A stretch of DNA of 64,000 bases from Spirochaetales bacterium (GTDB lineage: Bacteria; Spirochaetota; Spirochaetia; Treponematales; Treponemataceae): the NCBI GenBank assembly GCA_003246765.1, contig QKDA01000231.1, positions 25 through 64,024 of the forward strand, in the 5' to 3' direction. The translations under genes were made by a program, and so were the position numbers. The notes under the pieces are model-generated. The model saw only the letters and a list, made by a program, of their open reading frames with translations, made no database searches and was not told where the DNA came from. Of the stretch, positions 1 to 38,085 are shown one piece after another (position 1 is the stretch's first letter; each line of letters begins with the position of its first letter).

Positions 1-1020
1 CGCTGGGATGATCCCGGAGGGGAGGGGACGGAGAGCTTCCGCGTTACCCCCCCCCGGTATGTAGTCGAGTGCTACGCGTGCGGCCGCCCTTCCTGGCTCG
101 AGGAAATCCTCTTTGACTCAGGCGGCGGGGAGCCCCGGTTCCTGGTGGACCTGGAATACCTCACCGCCGAAAGCTGGTCCGCGGAGTACCATTTGCTTCC
201 GTCCCTTACCCGTTCTAGCGGCGTTAAGAAAACCATATTTATGCCCGGATTCCTGAAGGGCACCGGCGGACTCATCCTGGACAGGCCCTTTATGGACGCC
301 CTGGAGGCCTTCTCGAATCCGGATAGGAGGGCAGGCGAGCGCTCTTCCCTGCTTCGGGAGCTCGGTGCGGTAAAGTCCCTTCCCCCGGAAGCCGATCCTC
401 CCGGGACCTCGGCGTTTTGGTTCCTGCTTTTCAGCTACGAGCACGATTTTTCCGGTCTAGTGAAGGATCTCGCGGCCTTCGCCCGTGATCGGGAGGTGGT
501 CGTCTTTGCCGCGTCGGGACGAAGCGCAGAGCCCTTGAAGCGGGCCTTGGCCGACGCCTTCGCCCGGGAGGAGACCGTGCCCTTCACGGCGGTATTCCTC
601 CCCATGCTGGCCCAGGAAACCTGGGACCGGCTGCTGGCGGCTTCGGATTTTGCGGTGGTTCGGGGGGAGGAAAGCCTTTCCCGGGCGGTGCTGGCGGGCA
701 AACCCTTCCTGTGGGAATGTTATCCCTTCAAAGACGGGGATGGGGAGCGCTCTGGGCATTTTCCCAAGGTACTGGCCCTGCACGACCTCCTCAGGAAGGA
801 GGCGGCCCTTCTCAACGGGGCCTGTCTCGGGGAGGACTATCTGCGCTGGGAAGCCCTGTCCCTGGATTTTAACGGCATGGAAGGGGGCCGCGGCGATCTT
901 CTCGGCGTCCTCAGGTCTCTGCCCGCCGTGGAACCCGCGTTCCGAAATTTGTCCCAAAAGGTCCTTGAAAACGGGAATCTCGCGGTCAACCTGATGACAT
1001 TCCTCGGTATTTCAGGATAG
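1..1020 (+). CDS. earP: EF-P Arg32 rhamnosyltransferase EarP, 5' end outside window
   Basis: Frame 1 is open from nt 1 to the stop at 1018-1020. The product carries blocks I recognise from proteobacterial EarP (DLEYLTAESWSAEYHLLPSL, FMPGF, VVRGEESLSRA). It lies directly upstream of an Arg32-type efp. Confidence 0.8.
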   Translation, partial: RWDDPGGEGTESFRVTPPRYVVECYACGRPSWLEEILFDSGGGEPRFLVDLEYLTAESWSAEYHLLPSLTRSSGVKKTIFMPGFLKGTGGLILDRPFMDALEAFSNPDRRAGERSSLLRELGAVKSLPPEADPPGTSAFWFLLFSYEHDFSGLVKDLAAFARDREVVVFAASGRSAEPLKRALADAFAREETVPFTAVFLPMLAQETWDRLLAASDFAVVRGEESLSRAVLAGKPFLWECYPFKDGDGERSGHFPKVLALHDLLRKEAALLNGACLGEDYLRWEALSLDFNGMEGGRGDLLGVLRSLPAVEPAFRNLSQKVLENGNLAVNLMTFLGISG

Positions 1021-1083
1021 AATGGAAAAACTCGCCGTCTTTGCGCGGCGTGAACCCTAATCCTTTTTTTGAGAGAAGATATC

Positions 1084-1650
1084 ATGTTAGCAGCTTCACA
1101 ATTGCGCGTCGGCACCGTTTTCATGAACGGCAACGACCCGATGATCGTCCAGCGCATGCTCGGCAACAAGAGCGGCCGCGGTTCCATGGTGTACCGGCTC
1201 CGCATCAAGAACATCGTTACCGGCCAGACCATGGACGTCGGTTTCGATTCCAGCGAGAAGTTCCAGGAAGCGGAACTCGATTTCCACAAGGTTAAGCTTT
1301 CCTACATCGACGGCGACACCTACGTTTTCATGGAAGAAGAGACCTACGAGCAGTTCGAGATTTCCAAGGAAGACCTCGGGGACAACACGAACTACATCAC
1401 CGACGGAGATGAATTCGTGCTGGAGCTCACCTTCTATAACGGCAAGCCCGTGGGCGTGACCCTCCCTATCCTTATCGAGCGGGAAATCACCTACTGCGAG
1501 CCCGGCCTCAAGGGCGACACCTCGGGAAAAGCCACCAAGTCCGCCACCCTCGACACGGGTTTCGAGCTTCAGGTACCGCTTTTCTGCGAGATCGGCACCC
1601 GCATCATGGTCGATACCCGGGACGGCTCCTTCTCCGAGCGGGCAAAGTAA
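1084..1650 (+). CDS. efp: Elongation factor P, Arg32 (EarP-dependent) type
   Basis: Full-length EF-P-like sequence (LRVGTVF..., KPVGVTLP, YCEPGLKGDT). With ATG 1084 as start, the loop KSGRGS places Arg at residue 32 in place of the Lys of KPGKG-type EF-P. The ORF-track TTG at 1069 is a less likely start. Confidence 0.95.
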   Translation: MLAASQLRVGTVFMNGNDPMIVQRMLGNKSGRGSMVYRLRIKNIVTGQTMDVGFDSSEKFQEAELDFHKVKLSYIDGDTYVFMEEETYEQFEISKEDLGDNTNYITDGDEFVLELTFYNGKPVGVTLPILIEREITYCEPGLKGDTSGKATKSATLDTGFELQVPLFCEIGTRIMVDTRDGSFSERAK

Positions 1651-1692
1651 GCCCGTTCCCCAAGCGCCGAAACGAAGGTTTTAGTGCCGCAT

Positions 1693-1724
1693 GACCCCGG
1701 TCTCGAACCGGGGTCTTTTTTTTT
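1693..1724 (+). terminator. Rho-independent terminator of efp
   Basis: GACCCCGG-tctcgaa-CCGGGGTC hairpin followed by a run of nine T, about 40 nt after the efp stop. Confidence 0.8.
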
Positions 1725-1844
1725 CTTGGACCCCCGGAACCTGAAACCCTTGCCTCCCTTGACAGCTCCCGGGACCGCCTTTATGCTTGAGTACGGAAGT
1801 CATTGTCGGGAAACGTTTTATTTCCCGCTGAAAAGAAGGTATCT

Positions 1845-3431
1845 ATGCTGCCCACTCGGTTTTTCAACAATTCGGGACCAGTCAACGACCGGGATCACTT
1901 TTGCGTCCCTCCCATTCAGCGTCTTGACGTACGCAAAATTTGGCAGCTTATCCTCCAGAAGAAATATTTCCTAATCCGCGGTCCCAAGCAGTGCGGCAAG
2001 ACGTCCTTTTTGCTCGCCTTCGCTGAAATGCTCAATAGGGACGGCAAGGCCAAGTGCCTGTACATGAACGTGGAGTCGCTTCGGGGCGTTCAGGAAGACG
2101 TGGAGGAATGCATCCGCAGCATCCTATTCGAAATTTCCTCCCGGGCGCGGGATACCTTCGACGACGATTACCTGGAAGACCTGGTTCCCGAAATTCTCGC
2201 GAAGCGGGGTCCCTACCAGGCCTTAAACGAGTTTCTTACCCAATGGTCAAAGCGCTCAGACAAGCCCGTGGTCCTCTTCATAGACGAGATCGACACCCTG
2301 GACGGCTCGGTGCTGACCCCGATCTTGAGCCAAATTCGGGCGGGTTACGACAAACGGCCCGCCTTCTTTCCCCAGAGCATCGTTTTTTGCGCTACCCATG
2401 ACGTGATCGACAAGCAGTTCAACATCAAGGACGCCAGCATCCAGATCGGATTCTTTAAGCGGGACGAGCTGGACGCCATGTTCTCTTCCTACGCCGATGA
2501 ATTCGGACTCAAGCTGACCCGGGAGGCCCTGGACAGGGTTTGGGACTATACCTCCGGTCAGCCGTGGATCGTGAGCAGCCTGGCGGAGGAAATTTTCTCC
2601 GTCATCGTCCCCGCGAAGAAAATTACCCGGATCATGGCGCGCCCCGTGGATGAGGCCTTTCAGAATCTGCTGGCCCGCCGGGGCAACCACCTGGACTTTC
2701 TGACCACCCAGCTCCGGGACGAGCGGGTAATGCGTTGCCTCATGCCCATTCTCACGGGGGGACTCCTGGCGGATCAGGTATCCGAGACGGATATCGAATA
2801 TACCCGGGAACTGGGCATTATCGCCCCGAACAGGAAAACCTTCGACAATATGCTTTATACCCAGGTACTTCCCGGGGTCCTGTTCGGTTCCGTCACCTAC
2901 ATGATCAACCTTTCGGCGGAACGGTTTCTCAGGAGCGACCAGAGCATCGATTCGGGAAAGCTGGTGAAGTCCTTCCAGTTGTTCTACCAAAACCACATAG
3001 ACCGGCTCGTGGAAAGGATTAATTACGGTCCCGCAGGCTACGTACTGGTTTTCCAGGCGCTCCTCAAGAAGCTGGAGGACGGAAACTGCACTATAACCAG
3101 GGATTTCTCCGCCGAAAGGGGATTTACCGAGGTTACCGTCAATTGGCATTTCCCCGCCGAGCAGAGCGTGATCTTTCTCATCAAGCTGGTCAGGGTTCAA
3201 TCCATCGACCGCTACAAGCAGATGGTCCCCTCCCTGGCGGAGTGTTTCCAGATCTGGAGCTCTTCGCACCCCAACCTGTCCGGAGGCATGGGAACCGAAA
3301 CCTCCCCGGGGACGACTCCGGAAGTCCATGTCATCGCCATCAACACGAACCCGAAGTTTCAGTGGGAGGACCGAATGCCCCATGAGAAGCGGATCGTCGG
3401 CGGGGTCCCGGTTCACGTGTGGGGCTTTTAG
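1845..3431 (+). CDS. AAA-family ATPase of unknown role
   Basis: Walker A GPKQCGKTS and Walker B VVLFIDEID. ATG 1845 is preceded by GAAGG; the ORF-track start at 1803 is an alternative. The C-terminal about 250 aa is unassigned. Confidence 0.7.
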   Translation: MLPTRFFNNSGPVNDRDHFCVPPIQRLDVRKIWQLILQKKYFLIRGPKQCGKTSFLLAFAEMLNRDGKAKCLYMNVESLRGVQEDVEECIRSILFEISSRARDTFDDDYLEDLVPEILAKRGPYQALNEFLTQWSKRSDKPVVLFIDEIDTLDGSVLTPILSQIRAGYDKRPAFFPQSIVFCATHDVIDKQFNIKDASIQIGFFKRDELDAMFSSYADEFGLKLTREALDRVWDYTSGQPWIVSSLAEEIFSVIVPAKKITRIMARPVDEAFQNLLARRGNHLDFLTTQLRDERVMRCLMPILTGGLLADQVSETDIEYTRELGIIAPNRKTFDNMLYTQVLPGVLFGSVTYMINLSAERFLRSDQSIDSGKLVKSFQLFYQNHIDRLVERINYGPAGYVLVFQALLKKLEDGNCTITRDFSAERGFTEVTVNWHFPAEQSVIFLIKLVRVQSIDRYKQMVPSLAECFQIWSSSHPNLSGGMGTETSPGTTPEVHVIAINTNPKFQWEDRMPHEKRIVGGVPVHVWGF

Positions 3432-3518: not shown

Positions 3519-4196
3519 TTGACAAACGAACAAGTCGATGCGAGAAATTGCAATATTTTCATAATCGGCCCCCAGAACCTTCAAAACGAATTCTTCACCT
3601 ATGTTATCCAGAAGGAGCTTTCGTTTCCCTGTTATCTTTATGACAAGGAATTGAACCCCCTACGGTCCGGAACGGCGGCGAAGGCCGAGGAAGCCGTCGG
3701 TAAAACGCTCCTTTTGATTGACGTGGAATTTCATTGCTTTGAGGAAATTATCGAGGCGGCTTCGGCCAAGCCCCTTTTTACGGATTCCTACGTGGCGTTG
3801 ATAAATCTTAAGGAAAACACCGGAATCGAAAAAAAGGCCCTCTCGAAAAACGTTCGCGGTTTTTTCTATAAAGACGATCATTTCGAGCTGTTCCTCAAGG
3901 GAGTGCGCAATATTCTCAACGGCGAGGTTTGGATTTCCCGGTCGGTATTGCTCCAATGCGTGTACGATGGCTTACGGGATAAACAGGGCGAACCGGAAGC
4001 CCGGAGTTGCCTGACTACCCGGGAAGTCGAAATCCTTTCCCTCGTTAGCCAGGGCGCCAGCAACGACGAAATTGCCCGAAAGATGTTCATCAGCACGAAT
4101 ACCGTGAAGACCCATCTCTATAACATATTTAAAAAAATCAACGTAACCAACCGTCTCCAGGCATCCCAGTGGGCTACCTTAAACATACTTGCGTAG
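3519..4196 (+). CDS. VpsT/CsgD-family LuxR-type transcriptional regulator
   Basis: C-terminal HTH TTREVEILSLVSQGASNDEIARKMFISTNTVKTHLYNIFKKINVTNRLQASQWA is nearly colinear with E. coli CsgD as I remember it. It has a receiver-like N-domain and a W-I-S-R motif at the position of the VpsT c-di-GMP motif. TTG start, with no in-frame ATG near the 5' end. Confidence 0.8.
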   Translation: MTNEQVDARNCNIFIIGPQNLQNEFFTYVIQKELSFPCYLYDKELNPLRSGTAAKAEEAVGKTLLLIDVEFHCFEEIIEAASAKPLFTDSYVALINLKENTGIEKKALSKNVRGFFYKDDHFELFLKGVRNILNGEVWISRSVLLQCVYDGLRDKQGEPEARSCLTTREVEILSLVSQGASNDEIARKMFISTNTVKTHLYNIFKKINVTNRLQASQWATLNILA

Positions 4197-4455: not shown

Positions 4456-6432
4456 ATGAAACGTTTCCTGATTTTCGCAATGGCAAGTTCCGTTGCGTTT
4501 ATGCTTGCATCGTGCGTTGATTTCAACGCGAACGCTAATAACGCTAATTTGTCTGAATTGGTTCTTTCAAGCGGGGAACTAACGCCTGCATTTAAACCGG
4601 ATGTTACGAAGTATACGGTCTCCGTAGATTATACGGTTACGGAAATAACGGCGACGGGAACGGCCGAAAGCGCCGCCGCGACGGTCGGCGGGCAATCTGG
4701 CCAAAGCGTATCCCTGGCGGTAGGAGACACGGATATCGCCATCGAAGTGACTGCCGAGGACGGCGTAACGGTAAAAACCTACACCGTTACCGTGACCCGC
4801 GAAGAAGCGGGCCTGCCTTCTACAAACGCGAATCTTTCCGAAATACTATTGAGCGCGGGAAGCCTGACGCCCGCCTTCGCGCCGAACGTTACCGCGTATG
4901 CCGTATCCGTACCTTACGGGGTGACGGAAATAACGGCGACGGGAACGGCCGTAAGCGCCGCCGCAGCGGTCGGCGGGCAATCGGGGCAAAGCGTTCCCCT
5001 GGCGGTAGGGGAGACGGATATCGCCATCGAAGTGACTGCCGAGGACGGCGTAACGGTAAAAACCTACACCGTTACCGTGACCCGCGAAGAAGCGGTCCTG
5101 CCTTCCACTAACGCGAATCTATCCGAAATAGTATTGAGCGCGGGAAGCCTGACGCCCGCCTTCGCGTCTAACGTGACCGCGTATGCCGTATCCGTACCTT
5201 ACGGGGTGACGGAAATAACGGCGACGGGAACGGCAGAAAGCGCCGCCGCGACGGTCGGCGGGCAATCGGGGCAAAGCGTATCCCTGGCGGTAGGGGATAC
5301 GGATATCGCCATCGAAGTGACTGCCGAGGACGGCGTGACGGTAAAAACCTATACCGTCACCGTGACCCGCGAAGAAGCGGTCCTGCCTTCCGCAAACGCA
5401 AATCTTTCCAAAATAGAATTGAGCGCGGGAAGCCTGACGCCCGCCTTCGCGCCTAACGTGACCGCGTATGCCGTATCCGTACCTTACGGGGTGACGGAAA
5501 TAACGGCGACGGGAACGGCCGAAAGCGCCGCCGCGGCGGTCGGCGGGCAATCGGGACAAAGCGTTTCCCTGGCGGTAGGAGACACGGATATCGCGATCGA
5601 TGTGACGGCCGAGGACGGAGTGACGGTAAAAACCTACACCGTTACCGTGACCCGAGCGAATATCGTCAAGGTAATCAACGCAAACAATTACGATCCTTCC
5701 GCCTTGTCCGACGGTGAAATCCTGGCAGCAGCTTCGCTTGACGTCTATCTCGAACACGCTTCCGTCGGGGGCTATATCACCGGCGGCGCGCCGATCGGAG
5801 ACTGGCCCTTCGATGGATTGGGGGCGCTTGCGGCCGCGGACTCTCGATACGCTTGCGGCCGAGCATCGTGGGAAAGCCCCTCAACGTCTTCTTGGAACGG
5901 GGTAGCGAACGCGGCATGGTTCGACACAAATAACGGGTTGGGAGATCTTTTCAGGGGGAATCCTTCCGCCGCGACCAAGGTGTCTGGGTTTGAGGCTGCC
6001 ATGAACTATTCCGCCGGGGTTTTAGGCGCCGCCGTAGACGTTGCCATGTTTAAATTCTGCTACATCGATTCGCCCGCCTCCTCAACCGTTCAGTTCGATA
6101 CCGCCCGCGCGGCCATAGAGCGGCTGGAAGCAAGTTATCCAAACGTGACCTTCGTGTGGTGGACGATGCCGATCGAGGAAACCGGTAACGCGGCCCGCCA
6201 GGGGTATAACGATCTCGTGCGTACCTACTGCAACGATAACGACAAGTGGCTTTACGATATAGCTGATTTGGAAAGCCATGACGATTCGGGTATGGCCTAT
6301 ACGGATTCTTTCGGCCATGAGGTTCTGTACGCCGGATACAGCCATGACGGGGGACATCCCAACGGCCCGGGTGTTTTTAAACTCGCGAAAGCGTACTGGA
6401 AACTGATCGCCGAAATCGCGAAAACTCGTTGA
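4456..6432 (+). CDS. Secreted lipoprotein: four cadherin-like beta-sandwich repeats plus a C-terminal SGNH-like domain
   Basis: RBS AAGGAG and lipobox MLASC. Four 95-aa repeats (NANLSE..LS.G.LTPAF.P.VT.Y.VSV...VTEITATGTA) resemble the Cadherin-like (PF12733-type) repeat. The C-terminal about 250 aa is paralogous to the product of 12442-13257 (F/MKFCY.D, YPNVTFV, D.GH.NG). Confidence 0.75.
   Translation: MKRFLIFAMASSVAFMLASCVDFNANANNANLSELVLSSGELTPAFKPDVTKYTVSVDYTVTEITATGTAESAAATVGGQSGQSVSLAVGDTDIAIEVTAEDGVTVKTYTVTVTREEAGLPSTNANLSEILLSAGSLTPAFAPNVTAYAVSVPYGVTEITATGTAVSAAAAVGGQSGQSVPLAVGETDIAIEVTAEDGVTVKTYTVTVTREEAVLPSTNANLSEIVLSAGSLTPAFASNVTAYAVSVPYGVTEITATGTAESAAATVGGQSGQSVSLAVGDTDIAIEVTAEDGVTVKTYTVTVTREEAVLPSANANLSKIELSAGSLTPAFAPNVTAYAVSVPYGVTEITATGTAESAAAAVGGQSGQSVSLAVGDTDIAIDVTAEDGVTVKTYTVTVTRANIVKVINANNYDPSALSDGEILAAASLDVYLEHASVGGYITGGAPIGDWPFDGLGALAAADSRYACGRASWESPSTSSWNGVANAAWFDTNNGLGDLFRGNPSAATKVSGFEAAMNYSAGVLGAAVDVAMFKFCYIDSPASSTVQFDTARAAIERLEASYPNVTFVWWTMPIEETGNAARQGYNDLVRTYCNDNDKWLYDIADLESHDDSGMAYTDSFGHEVLYAGYSHDGGHPNGPGVFKLAKAYWKLIAEIAKTR
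4540..5654 (+). repeat. Four in-frame tandem repeats of 285 bp inside the lipoprotein CDS
   Basis: The unit start motif aacgc(g/t/a)aat recurs at 4540, 4825, 5110 and 5395, exactly 285 nt apart. Units 2-4 are near-identical at the DNA level. Confidence 0.9.
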
Positions 6433-6942: not shown

Positions 6943-8109
6943 ATGAAAACCTCTAGAAAACGATATCGGATGCCTGGCCTCATTCAAGTTCAACTTTCGA
7001 CCAAAAACAATATTTTTTCCGCTTCTGAATTCGAGTCCCTGGTACGTTACGAGAGAATTCGATCCGACAGGAACGGAAATCATTTTTCAGTCGCGGTTTT
7101 TAGCATGCCCGATATGACCCAGATTATTCCCCAACGGGTTATTTCCGAACTGGCAAACCTATCAAGGGCGATAGATTGCATCGGGTGGAGCGAGTCGAGC
7201 CAGGTAAGCGTTTTATTGCCGGATACGAGCAAAGACGGAGCGGAGGTATTCTCGAAAAAAGTCGTCGAGGGTGTCCTTGAGACCTGTTCGATTTGCATGG
7301 ACGTTTCCCTGTATTCATACCCCGAGCACTGGCTCGCAAATTCGACCGAGTTCGCGTATATCCCGGAGGCTGAACATCAGGAGTTGCGATCCTTTCGCGA
7401 ACGGCTCGAGGTTTTGTTCGTCAAGAAAATACCCGGTTGGAAGCGGGTTACCGACATCACATTCTCGCTCATGCTTGTCGTGCTATGTTTGCCTATTCTT
7501 GCCATAACGGCGATATATATCAAATTGGTGTCTCCCGGACCGGTCATATTCAAGCAAACCAGAATCGGCTACAAGGGACTTCCGTTCACGCTCTATAAGT
7601 TCAGGTCCATGCATGTGGCAAACAACCAGGGCTTTCACGGTAAGCATGCCCAGCAGTTCATCAAGGACGGCGACGTGCCGATGGAAAAACTCGATGGCCA
7701 CGATTCGCGCATCATTTTTGGCGGGAAGATTTTGCGAAAGTCTTGCATCGATGAATTGCCCCAATTATTGAACGTGCTGCGCGGCGACATGAGCTTAGTC
7801 GGCCCGAGGCCTTGCATTCCCTACGAGGCAAAGGAATATTTGCGGTGGCATACGCACCGGTTCGACGTTCTCCCCGGGCTTTCTGGATTATGGCAGGTCA
7901 GCGGAAAAAACAAGCTGACGTTCAAGCAAATGATCAGACTCGATATCACCTATTGCCAAACGATATCCTTCTTTAGGGATATGGCAATCATATTTATGAC
8001 CCCGATATCAATCGTTAAAATGATCGTCGAGGCTATCCTTTCCCGCGAAAGCTTCAAGGCAGACGGAAGCGGCGGATCGGGCCAGAACGGCATGGTCATC
8101 AACCTGTAG
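6943..8109 (+). CDS. Priming polyprenyl-phosphate sugar-phosphate transferase (bacterial sugar transferase, WbaP/EpsB type) with an N-terminal degenerate GGDEF-like domain
   Basis: RBS AAGGAG. C-terminal PGT blocks: KLVSPGPVIFKQTRIGYKGLPFTLYKFRSM, DELPQLLNVLRGDMSLVGPRP, PGLSGLWQVSG. The N-terminal about 130 aa aligns to the GGDEF fold (see finding). Confidence 0.85.
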   Translation: MKTSRKRYRMPGLIQVQLSTKNNIFSASEFESLVRYERIRSDRNGNHFSVAVFSMPDMTQIIPQRVISELANLSRAIDCIGWSESSQVSVLLPDTSKDGAEVFSKKVVEGVLETCSICMDVSLYSYPEHWLANSTEFAYIPEAEHQELRSFRERLEVLFVKKIPGWKRVTDITFSLMLVVLCLPILAITAIYIKLVSPGPVIFKQTRIGYKGLPFTLYKFRSMHVANNQGFHGKHAQQFIKDGDVPMEKLDGHDSRIIFGGKILRKSCIDELPQLLNVLRGDMSLVGPRPCIPYEAKEYLRWHTHRFDVLPGLSGLWQVSGKNKLTFKQMIRLDITYCQTISFFRDMAIIFMTPISIVKMIVEAILSRESFKADGSGGSGQNGMVINL

Positions 8110-8192
8110 GAAGTTATATTAACAGCGAAACGATGCGGCATAGATGTCGCGGAGATTCGCCGGTAATAAATATTGTGAGAAGGAGGTCGAAG

Positions 8193-8333
8193 ATGAAAAA
8201 AACGTACAATGCCCCCCAGCTGAAAACCGAAAAGCTTGAAATCGGCGTATTCGGTGATTACACTGGCGAGTCCCACCACAACTGGAATCCCATCGGAATT
8301 TTGCATCCTCTCTTCGGTTTGTGCTGTAGTTGA
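8193..8333 (+). CDS. 46-aa peptide MKKTYNAPQLKTEKLEIGVFGDYTGESHHNWNPIGILHPLFGLCCS, a candidate RiPP precursor
   Basis: AGGAGG (8181-8186) lies 6 nt before ATG 8193, and an 11-bp-stem hairpin follows the stop. It is shorter than the 66-aa ORF-track entry (8133-8333) in the same frame. Confidence 0.55.
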   Translation: MKKTYNAPQLKTEKLEIGVFGDYTGESHHNWNPIGILHPLFGLCCS

Positions 8334-8345
8334 ATAAGGGATTTG

Positions 8346-8382
8346 GGAACAATCGGGTATTCTGTTATCCGATTGTTCCTTT
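8346..8382 (+). terminator. Hairpin after the 46-aa ORF
   Basis: GGAACAATCGG (8346-8356) pairs with CCGATTGTTCC (8369-8379) around a 12-nt loop. It is followed only by TTT, so it is a weak intrinsic terminator. Confidence 0.4.
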
Positions 8383-8407: not shown

Positions 8408-9772
8408 TTAACGAATTTCGTGTATCTTTAGCTTGTACGAAAGGACCCTCTCGGATATCCCCAAAAGTTTCGCTGCTGATTTTTGATTGCCCGACGTCCT
8501 GGTCATCGCTTGGGTTATAAGGCGGTATTCCGCATCCTTCAGCTTAATTCCCTCAGGCGGCAGCTTAATGTACTCGTTATCCGCGGGAATCGGGGCAAAT
8601 CCATCAGCTTGATCGAAAAGCAAATCCAGGTCGTTGATCTGTATCACCGGGCCATCAGACAATAACACGGCCCGGTCCAGGGTGTTTTCCATCTCGCGGA
8701 TATTTCCGGGCCAACGGTAATTCGTCAGCCTCTGTATCGCTTCCGGGGAGAATCCCTTGATCTTCTTTTTCATTTTCGTATTAGAGAGCTTGAGGAAATA
8801 CATGAGGAGCAGGCTTACGTCTCCTTCCCGTTCCCTCAGGGCTGGCAGCCGTATGGTTATCACGTTAAGCCGGTAGAAAAGGTCTTCGCGAAAATGACCG
8901 CTCGCGATCATGGACGTCAGGTTCTTGTTGGTCGCCGACAGGATTCGCACGTCGGTCTTTTTTGTCTCGTTCGACCCGAGTCGCTCGAACTCCTTTTGTT
9001 GGAGCACGCGAAGCAGTTTCGCCTGCGTGACGAGCGAGAGATCGGCAACCTCGTCGAGAAACAGGGTCCCTCCGTCCGCGTATTCGAATCGGCCTACCCT
9101 GGTCCGGTCCGCCCCCGTGAAGGCGCCGCGTTCGTAACCGAACAACTCGCTTTCCAGAAGCTGTTCCGGAAGCGCTGCGCAATTGACCTTAACGTACGGT
9201 CCTTCGGACCGTAAGCTTTTTTCGTGTATTATCTGGGCTATCAGGTCTTTGCCCGTGCCGGTTTCGCCTAGGAGAAGGACGCTAACGTCGGTTCGGCTTA
9301 CCCTCTCTACTTTCCTGAATATCTCCGTGACCGCGGCGCTTTGCCCGATGAACTTCCCGTAGTAGGCCATGCCGCGTTCCGACATTTCTTCCTGGTTTAT
9401 TGCCTTTCGTTTGTTCTCGAAAGCCCGCTTAACCTGGAAATAAAGCTCGGCATCGTAATACGGCTTTTGGACCAGGCGAAAAACGTAAGAGGATGCCTGA
9501 TCCAATTCATGGGTGACGTCGATATTGTTCGGGCAAAGGACTATTATCGCGCATTCGGGCATTTTGCGCTTCAGATCCGGAAGCAACGATTTGATATCGA
9601 TGTCGGGAATGGAATAATCGACGATCAAAACGTCGTAGCTGTCAACTTCGACGAGCGATTCAAGCGCGAGAAAATTTGCCGCGTAGTCGACTTGATGGTC
9701 GAGCACGTTAAAGAACTGGCGAATGTGATCGTAGTTTTCTTCGTTGTTATCGATTATCAGTATCTTTCCCAT
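8408..9772 (-). CDS. Sigma-54-dependent response regulator (NtrC family enhancer-binding protein)
   Basis: Receiver domain (VLIVDYSIPD), AAA+ sigma-54 interaction domain (GETGTGKDLIA, ESELFGYERGAFTGA) and a C-terminal Fis-type HTH (SAAKLLGISERVLSYKLK). Confidence 0.9.
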   Translation of the reverse strand: MGKILIIDNNEENYDHIRQFFNVLDHQVDYAANFLALESLVEVDSYDVLIVDYSIPDIDIKSLLPDLKRKMPECAIIVLCPNNIDVTHELDQASSYVFRLVQKPYYDAELYFQVKRAFENKRKAINQEEMSERGMAYYGKFIGQSAAVTEIFRKVERVSRTDVSVLLLGETGTGKDLIAQIIHEKSLRSEGPYVKVNCAALPEQLLESELFGYERGAFTGADRTRVGRFEYADGGTLFLDEVADLSLVTQAKLLRVLQQKEFERLGSNETKKTDVRILSATNKNLTSMIASGHFREDLFYRLNVITIRLPALREREGDVSLLLMYFLKLSNTKMKKKIKGFSPEAIQRLTNYRWPGNIREMENTLDRAVLLSDGPVIQINDLDLLFDQADGFAPIPADNEYIKLPPEGIKLKDAEYRLITQAMTRTSGNQKSAAKLLGISERVLSYKLKIHEIR

Positions 9773-9941
9773 CTTTGCGTCCTTGGGAAAGCATATCTCA
9801 ATTTAAGGAGACAATCCTGAAAAGAGCGGTTAATATGACCGTTTTGGTATAGAATTATAGGGCGGAGGAGACATTACGAAAACGTTAACGCTAGATGACC
9901 TACAGAGAATCAGTTTTTTTTCGAACCTATCGTCGTTTGAT

Positions 9942-12440
9942 TTGCAGCAGATCGCGGAAATAGTGCAGGAACGGGAGTTCGGTCCTGACGAATTGATATT
10001 TGCGGAAAAAACGGAAGCCCATCATTTTTATATAATCGTCAGGGGCAAGGTAGAGATATCGAAGCTTTTTGAGGACGGCGAAAGGGCCGTTTTGTGCATT
10101 TTAAGCGACGGGGCCTTCTTCGGCGAAATCGCCTTACTCGACGAGGGGAAGCGTTCTTCCACCGTCACGGCGATCGAGCCCACGCTCGTCCTCATGATCT
10201 CGAAGGCAGATTTTGAGGGCTTGCTGTTTAGCGCCCCGGTTTTGACCCACCATATAATGCGCGAGCTGGGGTCTAGATTGCGTGAAACCGACGCGTTGCT
10301 GATATCGCACCTGACGCACAGGAATAAACAGTTATATCGCGCGTACATCGACACCATGACCCTTATCATCGATACGATAGAGTCGAGGAATATGCTTCCC
10401 GCGAGACAGAGCGCCAGGGTTACCGCGCTGGCGCTGGAATTGGGGAGGCAATTAGGCCTTGGCGAGATGGATCTTTTCCTCCTCGAGCTCAGCGCCCTTC
10501 TTCATGATCTCGGCATGTACACTATCCCTGACGAAACGCTGAACGCGAAATCAGTCTTGTCCGACGACGAGTTATCGACGATCCAGGCGCACAGCACAGA
10601 AAGCGCCAATATGGTTTCCTCGATTCCGATGCTACAGAAAATAATCCCTTTGATACGGCATCACCATGAGTGGTACAATGGGGGCGGTTATCCGGGCAAA
10701 ATCGGGGGGCGCGCCATACCGCGCGTAAGCCGGATCCTGGCGATCGCCGACGCCTACGTATCGATGACGGGGAATAGGCCGTACAGGGATAAAATGTCGA
10801 GAAATGAGGCGCTTGACGAAATACGCCGGCTTTCGGGGTCGCAGTTCGATCCCGAGTTTTCGGAGGTCTTCCTGAAGATGATGGGCACGAATATCCTGGA
10901 CCCGTTGAGCGGGATCGATGAATTGCAAAAAAAATTTACGGAGAAAGAAATGAATTTGGCTGACTACCTCTTGGTAAACGGGAAGGATGGCGATATCGCG
11001 GTCATTGACGGCGATCATCGGGTAACTTACGCTGAATTGAGGGACAAGGCAGGCTTGATCGCCGCTCAATTGAGCGAACGCGGATTGAAACCCGGGGATG
11101 CCGTGGGTATTCTCGGCCAGAACTCGGTGTTCTGGGTCGCCTCTTACCTCGCCGTACTGAAACTTTCCCTCATCGCGGTTCCTTTCTCGATTCTGTTGAC
11201 TCCCGAGGAGATATCGAGAAACGCGGAATGGGCCAAGTGCAAGGGCGTGCTGATGGATCGGCGCCAACAGAAAAAGTTCGACGGCGCGTTTCCCCCCGCG
11301 CTACCCCGGTTGCTTGACGATATCCTTGACGGGCCCGGGAAACCGCTTTGGCCCCATGCCTCGTCCTCCTTCGACACCCAAGCCGCCGCCGCCTACATGT
11401 TCACTTCGGGTACCACATCGAGGCCCAAGGCCGTCAGGATAACCCACGCCAATATCCAAAGCAATACGGCCAGCATAATCGAGTATCTCAGTCTCGCCAA
11501 AAGCGATCGCATGCTGGTTATTTTACCGTTCTTCTACTGTTTCGGCACGTCGCTCCTGCATACGCACCTGAGGGTCGGGGGGAGCGTGGTTATATGCAAT
11601 AGCTTCACCTTCCCCGAAATGGCGCTCGACCTGATGCAGCGTGAAGAGTGCACCGGTTTTGCCGGAGTTCCCTCCTCGTACCAGCTCCTCTTGAGGATAA
11701 GCACCTTTAAAACCCGGGAATTCCCGAAGTTGCGCCTGTTACAGCAAGCGGGGGGGAAATTGCATTCGGTATTGCTCGAGGAGTTGATGGAAAGCAAGCC
11801 AAACGTAAGGATCTTCGTGATGTACGGACAAACCGAGGCAACGGCGCGCTTGTCCTATTTACCGCCCGAAATGCTGCGGGATAAAATCGGTTCCATCGGC
11901 AGGGGAATCCCGGGCGTAACGCTCAGGGTTATGGGCGAGAACGGCGAGCCCGTGAAGCCGGGAGCGATTGGCGAAATTTATGCCCGCGGCGGGAATATAT
12001 CGCCCGGGTATTTAAACGATCCCGAGAGTACTGCCGCGAAATTCGTGGATGGGGAGCTTCATACGGGCGATTTGGCGATGCAGGACGAACAGGGATACAT
12101 CTTCGTGGTCGACCGAAAGGAAGACTTCATCAAGTCCTGGGGTTATCGGGTCAGCAGCCAGGAAGTCGAAAGCTGCGTGCTCGGCTTGCCGAACGTGGTT
12201 TCCGCCGCCGCGGTGGGCATTCCGGACTTGAGCGCCGGGGAATCGATCCACGTGTTCATCACGGTCAAACCGGGAACGGCCGTGAACGAAGAAACGGTAA
12301 TCGCAAGATGCCGCTCCCGCCTTGGAAAGCACATGATTCCGCAAAAGGTTCACGTAATAAAGGCGATGCCGCTAAATTCCAACGGGAAGGTGATGAAAAC
12401 CGCCTTAAGGCAAATGGCCAACGATGCCGGGGAGGGCTGA
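9942..12440 (+). CDS. Triple-domain fusion: cNMP-binding, HD-GYP, and AMP-forming acyl/aminoacyl ligase
   Basis: cNMP block FGEIALLDEGKRSSTVTA. HD-GYP blocks LLHDLGMY and HHHEWYNGGGYPGK. Adenylate-forming blocks MFTSGTTSRPKAV, YGQTEA and GDLAMQDEQGYIFVVDRKEDFIKSWGYRVS. TTG 9942 is the first canonical start, but the domain appears to begin upstream (frame open from 9861; see finding). Confidence 0.85.
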   Translation: MQQIAEIVQEREFGPDELIFAEKTEAHHFYIIVRGKVEISKLFEDGERAVLCILSDGAFFGEIALLDEGKRSSTVTAIEPTLVLMISKADFEGLLFSAPVLTHHIMRELGSRLRETDALLISHLTHRNKQLYRAYIDTMTLIIDTIESRNMLPARQSARVTALALELGRQLGLGEMDLFLLELSALLHDLGMYTIPDETLNAKSVLSDDELSTIQAHSTESANMVSSIPMLQKIIPLIRHHHEWYNGGGYPGKIGGRAIPRVSRILAIADAYVSMTGNRPYRDKMSRNEALDEIRRLSGSQFDPEFSEVFLKMMGTNILDPLSGIDELQKKFTEKEMNLADYLLVNGKDGDIAVIDGDHRVTYAELRDKAGLIAAQLSERGLKPGDAVGILGQNSVFWVASYLAVLKLSLIAVPFSILLTPEEISRNAEWAKCKGVLMDRRQQKKFDGAFPPALPRLLDDILDGPGKPLWPHASSSFDTQAAAAYMFTSGTTSRPKAVRITHANIQSNTASIIEYLSLAKSDRMLVILPFFYCFGTSLLHTHLRVGGSVVICNSFTFPEMALDLMQREECTGFAGVPSSYQLLLRISTFKTREFPKLRLLQQAGGKLHSVLLEELMESKPNVRIFVMYGQTEATARLSYLPPEMLRDKIGSIGRGIPGVTLRVMGENGEPVKPGAIGEIYARGGNISPGYLNDPESTAAKFVDGELHTGDLAMQDEQGYIFVVDRKEDFIKSWGYRVSSQEVESCVLGLPNVVSAAAVGIPDLSAGESIHVFITVKPGTAVNEETVIARCRSRLGKHMIPQKVHVIKAMPLNSNGKVMKTALRQMANDAGEG

Positions 12441-16324: not shown

Positions 16325-18316
16325 TTATTTCTTGGATGTCCTGTCGAAGACGGCAAGATCGCCCTGGGGGTTCCCGAAACGTTCAGCGGAACCGCCGCGC
16401 ACGATGAATTGCTCATGCAGCAATTGCGTGGATAGCACGGCGACGACCCGCATGTTGTCCGTGTTGCTCATCTTCGATCCGCCCACCTTGGAGCATTTCT
16501 CGAACAGGCTCCGGACCATCGCGGGATTGAAGATGCCCGCGTCCTTTACCGACGTCCCGAAAACCAGGTCGGTGATCCAATCCGGCGCCCCCGGCGCGAA
16601 GAATGCCGCGGCGTCCGGAGCCCGATAGGGTTGTTTTGGCCTCCGAAGGATGGTTTCCGGGACTAGGTCCGCGAAAGTCTTCTTGAGGATGTGCTTTTCG
16701 TCGAGGGCGAGCAGTTTTTGCCAATGGGGCAATCCGTGCGCGAAATTCGCGAAATCCGGGTCGAGAAACGGGAAACGGCCTTCCACGGAATTTCCCATAA
16801 GCATCCTGTCGCCCTGGGACGAGAGAATATATCCCGGCAGTATCGTATTCAGCTCAAGCCATTGCGCCCTCGCGAGCGGGGACCATTCCGCGCAATCGGC
16901 GGGCATGCGTGACACGAGGGCCTCGTCCACACGCGTATTCCCCTCCGCCAGCCTGAATTCCTCGGTAAGCATACCCTTGAGAGCAGCCGTGGAATCCCAA
17001 CGAGGCCTGTGCGAGAGCGCGGGGTCCTGAGGATCCAGGTTTCGGCCGAAGAATGCCTGAGCGAAGGCGGGGGCCTTCCCGGGCGACCTATCCATCCAGG
17101 GATACAGGAGCTCGGCGGCCCTTGCCCGTTGCGCGGAGGAAGGATCCCGCGCCCAAAACCGCCGGATCATCGCTTCCCGAAAGATGTCGTACCCGCCGAG
17201 CATTTCGTCCGAACCCTCGCCGGTCACGACGACTTTATAGCCCGAAGAGCGCACGAATTTCGAAAGAAGGAACATCGGGGCGGGACCCGCCCGGAGGATG
17301 GGCCGTTCCGCGTGCCACACGACCTCGGGAAATACATTGGCTATGTCGGAGGAGGAAACCCTGACGTCGGTATGCTCGGTTCCGAGGCGGGTCGCCATTT
17401 CGTTCTGGAATGCCCCCTCGTCGAATTCCCCTTCCTCGAAACGGAGGGAGAACGTGCGCAACGGCGCATCCGTGTAGGTGCAGATGATCGCCGCGGTCAC
17501 GGAGGAATCGATTCCCCCTGAAAGGTATGCCCCGACCGGAACGTCGCTCCGAAGAAATCGAAGCTTGGTCGCTTCGATGAGCAGCCTTCTCAGCTCGGCT
17601 CCGTTTTCCTCGATAGAAAGGTTTGTCTCGGGTACTGTCGGCGGGAATTGGTGTCGGTGGTATTGCTCGATCCGGAGCCGTCCGTTGGATAGCAGGGCCC
17701 AGTGGCCCGGAGGCAACTCGGATATGCCCCTATAGGGAGTGCGCGGGGCGACGGGGATCCAGAAGGTGAGTATTTCGTCCAAACCCTCTGGGTCAAAACC
17801 CCTCCCGAGAGTCGGGTCGGCGAAAAGAGCCTTGACTTCCGAGGCGAATATGAATTTCCCGTCGGCGAACGCGTAGTGCAGGGGAACTATTCCCGATGGA
17901 TCGCGGGAGAGCGCGAGTTCTCCGGTTCTTCGATCCCAAAGGGCGAAAGCCCATTGTCCGTTGAACCGGCCGAGGCATTTATGCCCCCACTCTTCCCAGG
18001 CATGAATGATTACCTCGGTATCGGACGAGGTGCTGAAACGGTGGCCCAGGGCTTTCAGTTCCGCCGTGAGCTCGACATAATTGAAAATCTCGCCGTTAAA
18101 GGTGATCCAAATGCTTTCGTTCTCGTTCGCTAAGGGTTGCGTGCCGCCGGCCCGGTCGATGATCGCCAGCCGGGTATGTCCGAGCAGGGCCCGCTCGTCG
18201 CGGAAATATCCCCGGCCGTCGGGTCCCCGGTGGTGCAGACGGTTCATCATAGCGAGAATCAATTCGGGATCCGGCGGGCCGTTACGCGCGGTAACCGCCC
18301 CGCAAATGCCACACAT
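16325..18316 (-). CDS. Asparagine synthase-like glutamine amidotransferase (class II, AsnB family)
   Basis: N-terminal nucleophile MCGICG and PP-loop YLSGGIDSSV. 663 aa. Confidence 0.9.
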   Translation of the reverse strand: MCGICGAVTARNGPPDPELILAMMNRLHHRGPDGRGYFRDERALLGHTRLAIIDRAGGTQPLANENESIWITFNGEIFNYVELTAELKALGHRFSTSSDTEVIIHAWEEWGHKCLGRFNGQWAFALWDRRTGELALSRDPSGIVPLHYAFADGKFIFASEVKALFADPTLGRGFDPEGLDEILTFWIPVAPRTPYRGISELPPGHWALLSNGRLRIEQYHRHQFPPTVPETNLSIEENGAELRRLLIEATKLRFLRSDVPVGAYLSGGIDSSVTAAIICTYTDAPLRTFSLRFEEGEFDEGAFQNEMATRLGTEHTDVRVSSSDIANVFPEVVWHAERPILRAGPAPMFLLSKFVRSSGYKVVVTGEGSDEMLGGYDIFREAMIRRFWARDPSSAQRARAAELLYPWMDRSPGKAPAFAQAFFGRNLDPQDPALSHRPRWDSTAALKGMLTEEFRLAEGNTRVDEALVSRMPADCAEWSPLARAQWLELNTILPGYILSSQGDRMLMGNSVEGRFPFLDPDFANFAHGLPHWQKLLALDEKHILKKTFADLVPETILRRPKQPYRAPDAAAFFAPGAPDWITDLVFGTSVKDAGIFNPAMVRSLFEKCSKVGGSKMSNTDNMRVVAVLSTQLLHEQFIVRGGSAERFGNPQGDLAVFDRTSKK

Positions 18317-33178: not shown

Positions 33179-34957
33179 TTATTGCTGTATCAAGGCTCCG
33201 GTTTCATAGTCCACGCAGTTCTCGAACGCGGCCTTGTTCGGATTCGAGGGATACACGTACCCCGCCAAGCCCCCGATTATTCTGCAATCCTTGAACCGCA
33301 CGTTCGCCGCATTCGAATACACGGTGTAGTAGAACGCGCCCTTTTCCAGGAACTCGCAGGAATCCAGCAGGGTGTTTCCCGCGTTTACGTTCACCGCGGA
33401 AGTCTGTCCCGTTACTCCGGCCTCGTAGGGCCCGGGGGTCGTGAAACGTACCCGGGTGAAAGTCATACCGTTGCCGCCCAGGGCCTGAAGGGTGTCGACA
33501 TGGTTCGACGGGGTCCCCAGCAGCGTGATCGAGAAGATGCTATCCTCTACGACGCAGGGCGTAGGGCTGGTGGTATCCTGCTGGCCGGTCAAACCGGTCG
33601 GGCGGAACGCCTTGCGGTCGCCGACGATTCTGGTCCACTTCACGGTCCAGTTGGTCTGTCCGCCGTATTCGAAGTAGATGCCGCCGAATACGTAGGTATG
33701 ATCAAGGAGAACCGTTCTCGAAACGCCGCTTCTGCCGTCAAAGACCCCGAAACCCGCGTCAAAACTGCAATCCCGGAATACGTAGGCGCCGGTATTGTTC
33801 TGTAACGACACGGAGGTGGTAAACCGGTATCCTTCGTAGGTTCCGGCGGGCAGGCTGCCGCCGGTCCTTGAGGTAAGGGCAACGCGGGGTCCAACCTGGC
33901 TTTCGGAAGGCGGACCGGCATAGGTAGAGGGCGCGGCCGCGGTTACGGTAAAGGTGGCGGTTGCGGACCCGGCGCGGGCTCCGTCGAGGGTCATGGCGGT
34001 TACGTCGACCCGGTAGGAACCGGCGGTCAGGGGCGAAGCGGAACCGTTCAGGGGAAGGGCGGCGCCTGAACCCGCGGAGGAGCCGTTAAGGAACCAGGAA
34101 TAGCTTACGTTCGAGGCGTTTGCGTCGCTGGACGCGGTGAGGGTGATAGCCGTTCCCGACGCGACGCTGCTGCTTACGTTGCCGATGGTTACGGTAAGGG
34201 GATCGGAGAGCGAAGGCGAAACCTCGATATCCACGCCGCCGGAGGGAACCATGAGATCCGGGAACGATACGGTTCCGCTGGAGGTTTCACCCGCCACTAT
34301 ACGGACGATGTCTACAGCGCTCGCCACGGATTCGCTTCCGTCAAGCAGGTTGACGCTGAGGGTATAGTAACCGGCCTCGACCTGATCGTCGACGGTGGCC
34401 TTGTTTACCCCTATCGCGGCGGTCAGGGGAATATGCACGTTGCCGGCGTTAATGAGTTCGACGATTGCCGATGGGTTTATAACGGCCCCGGGGGTCCAAT
34501 CTATCGTAAGATCCAAGGTACCCGGTCCCGTATACGGCTTAACGCTGATGTCGAGGGTGACGGTAGCCCCGCCGGTTACCGTAGTGACGCCGGTTCCAAG
34601 GCCGATCGATTTACCCTGCGCGTTTTTGGCGACGGTGGTGACCGTCCAGGTTCCCGCCGACAGGTTGGGAATGGTGACGGAAGAACCCAAAGAGGTCGTC
34701 GTAAAGGTATCTGAATTGGAACCCGTTCCCGATATCTCGTAGCTCGCCGGGGTCATGCTTATGGTCGGGGCTATCGTTCGCGACGCGTTGTCGATGAACG
34801 AAACGACCAACACGCCTTTTGCCGGTTCCGGGGCAGGCGCTTCCGGTTCGAGGGCGGGTTGCATTGAGCAGCCCATTTCGAGTAGCGCAGCAAGACCAGA
34901 CACTAATATCGCAAAAAGCATTTTACTTTTAATATTTGTGGGATGACGAGTAGCCAT
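33179..34957 (-). CDS. Large lipoprotein: Ig-like/beta-sandwich N-terminal region plus paralog 3 of the unassigned domain
   Basis: RBS AAGGAG lies 7 nt before ATG 34957. Lipobox LEMGC. About 330 aa of Thr/Ser/Val-rich beta-strand repeats, then the shared C-terminal domain. Confidence 0.75.
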   Translation of the reverse strand: MATRHPTNIKSKMLFAILVSGLAALLEMGCSMQPALEPEAPAPEPAKGVLVVSFIDNASRTIAPTISMTPASYEISGTGSNSDTFTTTSLGSSVTIPNLSAGTWTVTTVAKNAQGKSIGLGTGVTTVTGGATVTLDISVKPYTGPGTLDLTIDWTPGAVINPSAIVELINAGNVHIPLTAAIGVNKATVDDQVEAGYYTLSVNLLDGSESVASAVDIVRIVAGETSSGTVSFPDLMVPSGGVDIEVSPSLSDPLTVTIGNVSSSVASGTAITLTASSDANASNVSYSWFLNGSSAGSGAALPLNGSASPLTAGSYRVDVTAMTLDGARAGSATATFTVTAAAPSTYAGPPSESQVGPRVALTSRTGGSLPAGTYEGYRFTTSVSLQNNTGAYVFRDCSFDAGFGVFDGRSGVSRTVLLDHTYVFGGIYFEYGGQTNWTVKWTRIVGDRKAFRPTGLTGQQDTTSPTPCVVEDSIFSITLLGTPSNHVDTLQALGGNGMTFTRVRFTTPGPYEAGVTGQTSAVNVNAGNTLLDSCEFLEKGAFYYTVYSNAANVRFKDCRIIGGLAGYVYPSNPNKAAFENCVDYETGALIQQ

Positions 34958-35157
34958 AAAGAACTCCTTGGCGCCGGAAATTAATTTCGTGTGTCCGACG
35001 CACTGGAGATATAGCAATGAATGTGCCAACTGACAATTTTTTTTAAAGCGGTTATTTCTTTGCGGGATAAAGAAATAATTAAATGGCCATTTTAGGCGAT
35101 TTAAGAAATAAGTCCATTCTGATAATTACAATTTTGGAGAGAGATACGAATTTGTAA

Positions 35158-37005: not shown

Positions 37006-37006
37006 G

Positions 37007-37993: not shown

Positions 37994-38026
37994 ACCGCCC
38001 CCCTTGTTACCTGACAAGCATTTACC

Positions 38027-38055: not shown

Positions 38056-38085
38056 TTTAATATCTCAATAAGTTATTGTAAGGGA

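Follow-up and report, generated by a model that had tools for sequence, protein, structure and literature searches.

The window analyzed here is a stretch of 64,000 nucleotides (nt) from a Spirochaetales bacterium (GenBank assembly GCA_003246765.1, contig QKDA01000231.1, positions 25–64,024 of the forward strand), and the window coordinates below count from its first letter. A short gene on the forward strand, at 8193–8333, most likely encodes the precursor peptide of a ribosomally made, post-translationally modified peptide (RiPP) cassette at 38.0–41.8 kb, a reading to which we assign a probability of about 80% on the basis of sequence comparisons. The 46-residue product is MKKTYNAPQLKTEKLEIGVFGDYTGESHHNWNPIGILHPLFGLCCS. 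The cassette contains a radical S-adenosylmethionine (rSAM) maturase with a SPASM domain, a stand-alone PqqD-type RiPP recognition element (RRE) and a ScmC-family P-loop protein, and also a Sec11/SipW-type (S26) peptidase and a nucleotidyltransferase-fold protein (NTP_transf_5), neither of which was listed in an initial annotation of the window. That annotation had placed the cassette correctly and had proposed, across a distance of 30 kb, that the peptide is the substrate of its PqqD, rSAM and HprK-like proteins. The proposal is strongly supported by related loci: in 13 of 13 independent relatives with enough flanking sequence, the peptide gene adjoins the cassette in convergent orientation, and the window is the sole exception.

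This adjacency was found starting from the peptide, from the cassette, and from the core motif alone (L-numbers denote loci of relatives, and P0002 the closest peptide homologue). From the peptide, P0002 is located beside the cassette in L002, L004 and L005, in the order of a glycosyltransferase gene of the Bac_transf type, the peptide gene, the convergent rSAM, PqqD and ScmC genes, a gene for a 159-residue protein, and then divergent ABC and ABC-2 transporter genes; between L002 and the window, identity is 50% for the rSAM protein and 49% for ScmC. From the cassette, 22 homologues of the window ScmC were found, and all six that were looked up (L007, L008, L010, L012, L014 and L015; 37–53% identical) have a convergent peptide gene just past the rSAM gene, the one in L015 being uncalled in the existing annotation. 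From the core motif, a metagenome scan with [FL][NH]P[LF]F[GRH][LW]CC yielded eight loci. The rSAM gene is adjacent in all of those with usable flank (L020, L021, L023, L024, L025/L026 and L027; mapped with hidden Markov models (HMMs) and phmmer), and PqqD, ScmC and S26 genes are also present wherever the contig extends that far. A further ScmC homologue (33% identical) is annotated from a 'Spirochaetales bacterium' metagenome-assembled genome (MAG). The co-occurrence of the peptide with the PqqD, rSAM and HprK-like genes, which the initial annotation had put forward as a check, thus takes the form of direct adjacency in all 13 relatives.

Sequence comparisons also indicate that 8193–8333 is a real, conserved protein-coding gene, far beyond chance. 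A word-indexed search of 5.8 billion proteins returned one homologue, P0002 (63% identical), while a profile search without a word index over 1.84 billion representatives gave 98 clusters at E ≤ 1e-3, all of 40–110 residues, and a further profile search gave 82 clusters in the 90% database. By these profile searches the family is present in many metagenomes and genomes; one peptide with 56% identity has a 'Spirochaetes bacterium' MAG as its annotated source. The 167 unique peptides collected, a set that took in only peptides matching Y-x-x-P, include 92 in a Cys-Cys class. The search for relatives suggested earlier has uncovered a conserved protein family alongside the cassette. Database entries name its members 'hypothetical protein', with the exception of one class-3 relative (classes are defined below) called 'putative RiPP precursor', and no Pfam or NCBIfam model matches the window peptide or the tested members of other classes. 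No relevant paper on the peptide family or the cassette was found in a literature search that much of the RiPP literature, in subscription journals, lay outside. Codon differences among 12 family genes, counted over the 27 codons of two conserved blocks, are concentrated at position 3 (1041, compared with 427 at position 1 and 321 at position 2), and synonymous replacements in these codons number 659. The third-position excess and the synonymous changes therefore exclude an element conserved as RNA only.

The reading frame runs from an ATG at 8193 to a TGA stop at 8331–8333. It is preceded by the Shine-Dalgarno sequence AGGAGG (8181–8186, forward strand) with a 6-nt spacer (tcgaag). Direct reading of the sequence bears out the start, stop and ribosome-binding site given in the initial annotation, as well as its residue numbers (Y5, P8, L10, K14, F20, C44, C45 and S46) and its flanking genes. 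A GGAGG-type site lies at an equal distance to the start in 14 of 16 related peptide genes. The hairpin noted previously after the stop is also present and starts 12 nt past it (8346–8379, forward strand). Its arms (8346–8359 and 8366–8379) are 93% complementary and include a perfect 11-bp part (GGAACAATCGG/CCGATTGTTCC), with a folding energy of −27.9 kcal/mol (z = −6.1 versus shuffled sequences). This stable structure is terminator-like, and it was not called by a terminator scan because its U tract (UUUGCGCUU) is weak. Most related peptide genes likewise have a stable hairpin 3′ of the stop. Directly 5′ of the peptide gene and in the same orientation is a gene for a polyprenyl-phosphate glycosyl-1-phosphate (priming) transferase of the Bac_transf type (6943–8109, forward strand; TIGR03025, E = 6e-71, below cut-off), a pairing that is kept in close relatives. 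The 3′ neighbor encodes a sigma-54 response regulator (8408–9772, reverse strand). No sigma-54 promoter was found upstream of the peptide gene, where the sole promoter candidate is a weak sigma-70-like site at 8093–8120. Searches with tblastn and the family HMM, covering all open reading frames (ORFs) of at least 30 residues, found no second peptide copy near the cassette or elsewhere in the window.

The 167 peptides share a leader of the form [KR]-K-x-Y-x-x-P-x-[LIV]-[KR]-[TS]-E-x-[ILV]-x-[ILV]-G-V-[FY]-G-x-Y-G, in which both glycines of G-V-F-G are found in 163/167, the tyrosine of x-Y-G in 159/167, and the [TS] preceding the conserved glutamate in 150/167. Between leader and core is a Gly-, Ser- and Asp-rich linker that varies in length. 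Approximately residues 1–24 of the window peptide (nt 8193–8264) form its leader, and residues 25–32 its linker; the core comprises P33–C45 plus S46 (nt 8289–8330) and reads P-I-G-I-L-H-P-L-F-G-L-C-C-S. The leader is hydrophilic, and the peptide has no hydrophobic segment. Residues Y5, P8, C44 and C45 are invariant in a 44-sequence alignment of class 1; leader position 10 is always L, I, V or M, and E13, G18, G21, Y23, P39 and F41 are near-invariant.

By their cores, the peptides fall into three classes and a remainder of 29. Class 1, to which the window peptide belongs, has 92 unique members with the core P-[IV]-x-x-[FL]-N-P-[LF]-F-G-[LIW]-C-C followed by a short tail; class 2 (22 unique peptides) has a C-terminal h-x-h-[ED] motif, for example DLNLHME, and no cysteine; class 3 (24 unique peptides) has Trp/Arg-rich tails. 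Class 1 is defined by Cys-Cys, which is hence present in 92/92 members; Pro at −5 is found in 86/92 and Phe at −3 in 83/92. The residues that follow Cys-Cys are S in 35 peptides, G(1–5) in 26, P in 8 and N in 6, with others, including D and Q, making up the rest. The 24-residue leader was also located on unrelated cores in L016 (8001–8144), L030 (3105–3260), L018 (9294–9449) and L029 (582–725).

The genes of the cassette are all on the forward strand. The predicted maturase (40797–41804) matches the rSAM (PF04055, E = 4e-23) and SPASM (E = 3e-7) models, and its translation shows CxxxCxxC and a full SPASM cysteine set. Its best family matches are ScmE, AhbD, NirJ, PqqE and MftC, all far below cut-off, and among enzymes of solved structure the sactisynthase SkfB is nearest in sequence (E = 4e-17). 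The PqqD-type RRE (40525–40800; PF05402, E = 4e-12) is a predicted leader-binding chaperone, with the lasso B1 PqqD chaperone as its best NCBIfam match (E = 6e-11, below cut-off). A ligand with Y-x-x-P-x-L, a motif conserved in the leaders of lasso precursors (PMC10368454), would suit this resemblance; together with the conservation of Y5, P8 and position 10, the resemblance upholds the recognition element pointed out by the initial annotation. The ScmC-family protein (39622–40479) is carried by an ORF that opens at 39565, and homologues start at M20. A G-x-x-G-x-GKST motif and a downstream N-D-E are invariant across homologues, and the AlphaFold model (pLDDT 92, pTM 0.90) matches ATP-dependent PEPCK (E = 4e-8, TM ~0.47–0.50) and HPr kinase/phosphorylase (E = 7e-6) in Foldseek searches, whereas HprK matches at the sequence level are only marginal. 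The label 'HprK-like' used earlier is thus right at the level of the fold, and the model makes ATP-dependent phosphotransfer the likely activity.

The candidate leader peptidase (39185–39655) is a soluble protein of the Sec11/SipW type (TIGR02228, E = 3e-12; score 46.7 against a cut-off of 51.85) whose profile also matches human SEC11A/C (E = 2e-8). Residues S33-M34, H71-R72 and D90, which correspond to the S-M-x-P, H-R and G-D motifs, are invariant in nine sequences, so that the Ser-His(-Asp) catalytic residues are shared with Sec11/SipW type I signal peptidases. Those enzymes are membrane-anchored and act on exported substrates with signal peptides, whereas the cassette peptidase contains no hydrophobic segment (maximum Kyte-Doolittle value over 19 residues of 1.29), and hence no anchor, and the peptide leader is hydrophilic. 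In L012, the place that this peptidase occupies in other loci, directly upstream of ScmC, is taken by an AmmeMemoRadiSam-type radical SAM gene (8867–9871 of that locus; TIGR04337, E = 9e-100). The NTP_transf_5 protein (~38083–39195; PF14907, E = 7e-30) has an uncertain start in an ORF that opens at 37975. It is optional, being present in L008, L010, L015, L018, L020 and L026 and absent beside the cassette in L002, L007 and L014. Divergent from these genes, on the reverse strand, are genes for a DrrA-like ABC transporter ATPase (37007–38017) and an ABC-2 type permease (36202–37050), the latter kept beside the cassette in L002, L007, L008, L014, L015, L018, L020 and L026. The ScmC ORF begins within the 3′ end of the peptidase gene (39565–39655; likely ScmC start 39622), and the PqqD and rSAM genes overlap by 4 nt (40797–40800). 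Such overlaps, also seen in relatives, suggest translational coupling along the cassette.

The enzyme content of a locus varies with the core of its peptide. In L018, a Spirochaetales MAG locus with a Trp/Arg-rich, Cys-free core, the order is NTP_transf_5, S26, ScmC and PqqD, followed by a convergent peptide gene; the ABC genes are kept, and no rSAM gene is found anywhere in its 16.8 kb. L029, with the same leader and a Trp/Arg-rich, Cys-free core, has ScmC, PqqD and then the peptide gene, with no rSAM gene between. Class-2 peptides (L016 and L030) lie beside an ABC_membrane-type exporter with none of the cassette enzymes within reach; the 173-residue protein next to the peptide in L016 is unrelated to the Sec11-type peptidase and matches no family. 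The rSAM enzyme, present with Cys-Cys cores and absent with Cys-free cores, is therefore assigned to the Cys-Cys core, for which this co-variation, itself correlative, is the strongest available support. PqqD, ScmC, the peptidase and NTP_transf_5 would go with the shared leader. The emphasis that the initial annotation placed on the core cysteines is borne out, with C44-C45 invariant and the rSAM gene tracking Cys-Cys.

A pathway can be proposed from these assignments. Conservation of the leader suggests that the PqqD-type RRE would bind it through Y-x-x-P-x-L and present the peptide to the other enzymes. The rSAM/SPASM protein would then modify the C-terminal core using Cys44-Cys45. The core chemistry is a guess; one or two thioether cross-links to upstream core residues, as in sactipeptides or ranthipeptides, are the most likely form, at somewhat below even odds. 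From its fold and motifs, ScmC probably phosphorylates a peptide hydroxyl, not necessarily that of Ser46; the resulting phosphate may in turn be decorated by NTP_transf_5, as is the case for phosphoglycosylated lasso peptides. The soluble Sec11/SipW-type peptidase would remove the leader, plausibly at the G-V-F-G/x-Y-G junction: G-V-F-G agrees with the signal-peptidase rule in having Val at −3 and Gly at −1, and leader conservation ends there in all classes, which points to cleavage nearby. The divergent ABC/ABC-2 pair would finally export the product.

By analogy, the system resembles a PqqD-dependent rSAM/SPASM RiPP pathway. The general features of RRE-dependent rSAM RiPPs are found here, namely a short gene, a conserved leader with a separate core, protein-level selection and co-location. 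The same kinds of protein occur in SynChlorMet (SCM: ScmC, ScmD, which is a PqqD, and the rSAM/SPASM proteins ScmE and ScmF), and the P-loop protein carries PF27840 in precomputed annotation. However, the window proteins stay well under the SCM equivalog cut-offs (28.4 vs 125 bits for TIGR04249, 22.3 vs 100 for TIGR04248, and 112.7 vs 400 for TIGR04250, ScmE). In addition, SCM has two paralogous rSAM proteins where the window and all related cassettes have one, and the window-type cassette is extended by a Sec11-type peptidase, by ABC-2 transporter genes and, in many cases, by NTP_transf_5. On these comparisons the cassette is a relative of SynChlorMet, not a member. The SCM description reportedly states that no precursor peptide was identified; no paper mentioning SynChlorMet was found in the literature searched.

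Sactipeptides and ranthipeptides (SkfA/SkfB, SCIFF/CteB) likewise rely on an rSAM/SPASM enzyme acting on the Cys-containing core of a leader peptide, and at the gene level a SPASM rSAM and core cysteines (C44, C45) are found here as well. In those systems, however, the RRE is an N-terminal domain of the rSAM enzyme, whereas here it is a separate PqqD protein. The window peptide has only two cysteines, adjacent and at the extreme C-terminus, its thioethers are a prediction, and its cassette has kinase-like and Sec11-like partners. Phospho(glyco)lasso peptides (paeninodin, pseudomycoidin and Bsf) share the Y-x-x-P-x-L leader, a B1-type PqqD and an HprK-fold kinase (PMC8498205, PMC10368454), and their clusters also share an NTP_transf-type accessory protein and an ABC exporter with the window cassette. 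The latter has an rSAM/SPASM protein and a Sec11-type peptidase instead of a cyclase and a B2 protease, and the core lacks lasso features. Mycofactocin (MftA/B/C) and PQQ (PqqA/D/E) similarly combine a small peptide, a stand-alone PqqD and an rSAM/SPASM enzyme acting on residues at or near the C-terminus. Their core residues are Val-Tyr or Glu...Tyr rather than Cys-Cys, and the window cassette has no downstream cofactor-processing genes and scores far below the cut-offs of these families.

Comparison of gene orders indicates that the 30-kb separation in the window is secondary and results from rearrangement in this genome. The order in L020, Bac_transf(+), peptide(+), rSAM(−), PqqD(−), ScmC(−), S26(−), NTP_transf_5(−), ABC(+) and ABC-2(+), is exactly that of the window with ~8.4–41.8 kb inverted. 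Inversion of this segment, which carries the cassette, the ABC genes and exopolysaccharide genes, would convert the window to the order of its relatives. The genes in between form an exopolysaccharide locus with the sigma-54 regulator, an SLBB export protein, Wzz, a Wzx-type flippase, several GT2 and GT4 glycosyltransferases, Alg13/14-like proteins, an acetyltransferase and AsnB; the ABC-2 gene of L002 and L008 is likewise succeeded by exopolysaccharide genes, with their relative order unchanged. One Logan contig, assembled independently, covers ~5623–37827 and so reads across from the peptide gene into that of the sigma-54 regulator; a second takes in the 5′ end of the ABC gene and the cassette and reaches the start of mdh, and the ABC ORF, which bridges the gap separating these contigs, is full-length. 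Both junctions are thereby confirmed, and the split is not an assembly artefact. No inverted repeats were found at the presumed inversion boundaries. The gene is isolated in the window, as its earlier description as 'stand-alone' implied, but this isolation would be derived by rearrangement and is not a design feature.

Several other explanations of the peptide were weighed. That the ORF is due to chance, or is a cis-regulatory leader conserved as RNA, might be suspected from its short length, its intergenic position and the strong hairpin 3′ of it, and the initial annotation had named a regulatory leader conserved only at the nucleotide level as a case against its own proposal. The differences dominated by third positions and the 659 synonymous changes contradict that case, the peptide motifs are kept across members with little DNA identity, and ribosome-binding sites are conserved, all of which leaves this explanation next to no probability. 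A link to the exopolysaccharide machinery, in which the peptide would serve the priming transferase as a small subunit, a regulator or an acceptor and would lie near the cassette of relatives only incidentally, has more in its favor: Bac_transf and peptide genes occur in this order, in the same orientation and 30–85 nt apart in the window, L002, L007, L008, L014 and L020, and this pairing is the one that survived rearrangement in the window. In L010, L012, L015, L024, L026 and L027, however, the peptide gene stays beside the rSAM gene with no Bac_transf gene nearby, the peptide lacks a hydrophobic segment, and its invariant Y-x-x-P leader is of the kind seen in RRE ligands. We consider this link quite improbable. 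A lasso peptide precursor would account for the Y-x-x-P-x-L leader, for the affinity of the PqqD protein with lasso B1, and for the kinase-like and nucleotidyltransferase accessory genes, which also occur in lasso clusters; the sole curated-family match of the window peptide, below threshold, is that of residues 1–11 to lasso_cyano of NCBIfam (E = 0.028). Yet no B2 transglutaminase-type protease or lasso cyclase was found in or next to the cassette in 13 loci, a scan that did not take in every ORF of the window. The one Asn-synthase homologue of the window (16325–18316) has an intact glutamine-amidotransferase domain and sits among the exopolysaccharide genes. Lasso precursors are marked by Thr at leader position −2 and by a core that begins with G, A, S or C and carries Asp or Glu at positions 7–9. 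The peptide itself has no Thr at −2 and no conserved Asp/Glu at these core positions, and the Gly and Thr positions of the lasso motif read K14 and F20. We regard a lasso precursor as very improbable.

A different question is whether the peptide is modified mainly at the C-terminal Ser46, which the HprK-like protein would phosphorylate and NTP_transf_5 would then glycosylate, in the manner of paeninodin and pseudomycoidin. Lasso precursors provide the precedent, since HprK homologues phosphorylate their C-terminal serine and a nucleotidyltransferase glycosylates that phosphate (PMC8498205). The kinase-type fold and motifs of ScmC and the presence of NTP_transf_5 agree with it, and the window peptide ends in Ser, as do relatives as distant as those of L010 and L012. 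Serine follows Cys-Cys in only 35 of the 92 class-1 peptides (38%), however; other tails are GG, P, N, poly-Gly, D, Q and more. ScmC-PqqD cassettes also accompany the Trp/Arg-rich class-3 peptides that lack a terminal Ser, and NTP_transf_5 co-occurs with the tails S, N, GG and W alike. Terminal Cys-Cys-Ser is thus not a family property, and the argument of the initial annotation from the terminal serine to the kinase does not hold; nor are HprK-like RiPP kinases restricted to a C-terminal Ser, as it had presumed, given that the lasso kinase BsfK phosphorylates the internal Ser3 (PMC10368454). A target common to the whole family must lie elsewhere, because Ser tails occur in just this fraction of class 1, and the [TS] before the conserved Glu, Tyr23 and a linker hydroxyl are candidates. 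Ser46 phosphorylation as the main modification is therefore unlikely, while Ser46 may still be modified in the window peptide.

Other observations weigh against the precursor assignment or its details. In the window itself the peptide gene is 30 kb from the enzymes, and their coupling is deduced from relatives alone; here the gene is co-oriented, and probably co-transcribed, with that for the priming sugar transferase. The window peptide has T24 and H38 where the usual consensus residues are G and N, respectively. The rSAM protein is far below every curated cut-off, and its chemistry is thus not transferable from a known enzyme. The inversion was compared with relatives at one breakpoint, the second being the junction between the sigma-54 regulator gene and mdh, and a gene for a Cadherin-like protein is placed differently from its position in L002 and L008, which implies more than one rearrangement.

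This Cadherin-like gene (4456–6432, forward strand) encodes a secreted protein of 658 residues with four near-identical repeats of ~90 residues (NANLSE..LTPAF..TVTVTREEA); it is located upstream of the Bac_transf gene in the window and after the ABC-2 gene in L002 and L008. Further to the left, the EarP, EF-P and ATPase_2 proteins of L002 are 97–99.8% identical to those encoded in 1–3428 of the window. From a CsgD/VpsT-like regulator (3519–4196) onwards, identity to L002 drops to 50–63% (Bac_transf 63%, peptide 63%, rSAM 50%, ScmC 49%). On these identities, the exopolysaccharide and RiPP locus behaves as a hypervariable island with its left edge at ~3.43–3.52 kb, near-identical strains carrying strongly diverged versions. 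A perfect −24/−12 sigma-54 consensus (TGGCACATTCATTGC) is found at 35014–35028 on the reverse strand, at the start of a 616-residue PKD/beta-helix ORF (33179–35029). A sigma-54 response regulator is likewise among the products of this locus; sigma-54 matches in the window are not above chance (2 found versus 2.3 expected with at most one mismatch). At 9942–12440 (forward strand), an 832-residue protein fuses a cyclic-nucleotide-binding domain, an HD/HD_5 domain and an AMP-forming acyl-CoA ligase that resembles the exosortase-A-associated ligase TIGR03098, below cut-off.

The peptide would supply the missing substrate for a recurrent, uncharacterised type of cassette related to ScmC and SynChlorMet, and it stands for a family of ~170 distinct peptides that go unrecognized by Pfam and NCBIfam models. 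Its leader is modular: one 24-residue handle is found on at least three unrelated core types, and the set of enzymes at a locus changes with that core. The restriction of rSAM to Cys-Cys cores yields testable assignments, of PqqD, ScmC and the peptidase to the leader and of rSAM to the Cys-Cys core. If these are true, each of three features would be a novelty: an invariant C-terminal Cys-Cys as the target of an rSAM enzyme, a soluble enzyme of the Sec11 type that removes a RiPP leader, and a partner with the PEPCK/HprK fold in a system other than lasso peptides. Where precursor and enzymes are split by tens of kilobases, as here, genome-mining tools based on clusters would miss the peptide.

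Taken jointly, these features could represent an undescribed RiPP class, in which recombination has brought an rSAM/SPASM enzyme and a cytoplasmic leader peptidase of the Sec11 type together with a lasso-type module for leader recognition and kinase/nucleotidyltransferase action to make a cross-linked, possibly phospho-glycosylated Cys-Cys peptide that is integral to a biofilm/exopolysaccharide program rather than an antibiotic. We consider this combination speculative and, as a whole, improbable. It is suggested by the embedding of the cassette in exopolysaccharide and glycosyltransferase loci in many lineages, by the gene order in close relatives, from which the peptide gene appears to be transcriptionally joined to that of the priming transferase, and by the divergence of the locus, which differs by ~40–50% in protein between strains whose flanks are 97–99.8% identical. 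The product might then, for example, bear a glycan or anchor the matrix, or it might act as a signal diversifying together with the polysaccharide type. The hypervariable exopolysaccharide setting in any case hints at a role at the cell surface or in biofilms.

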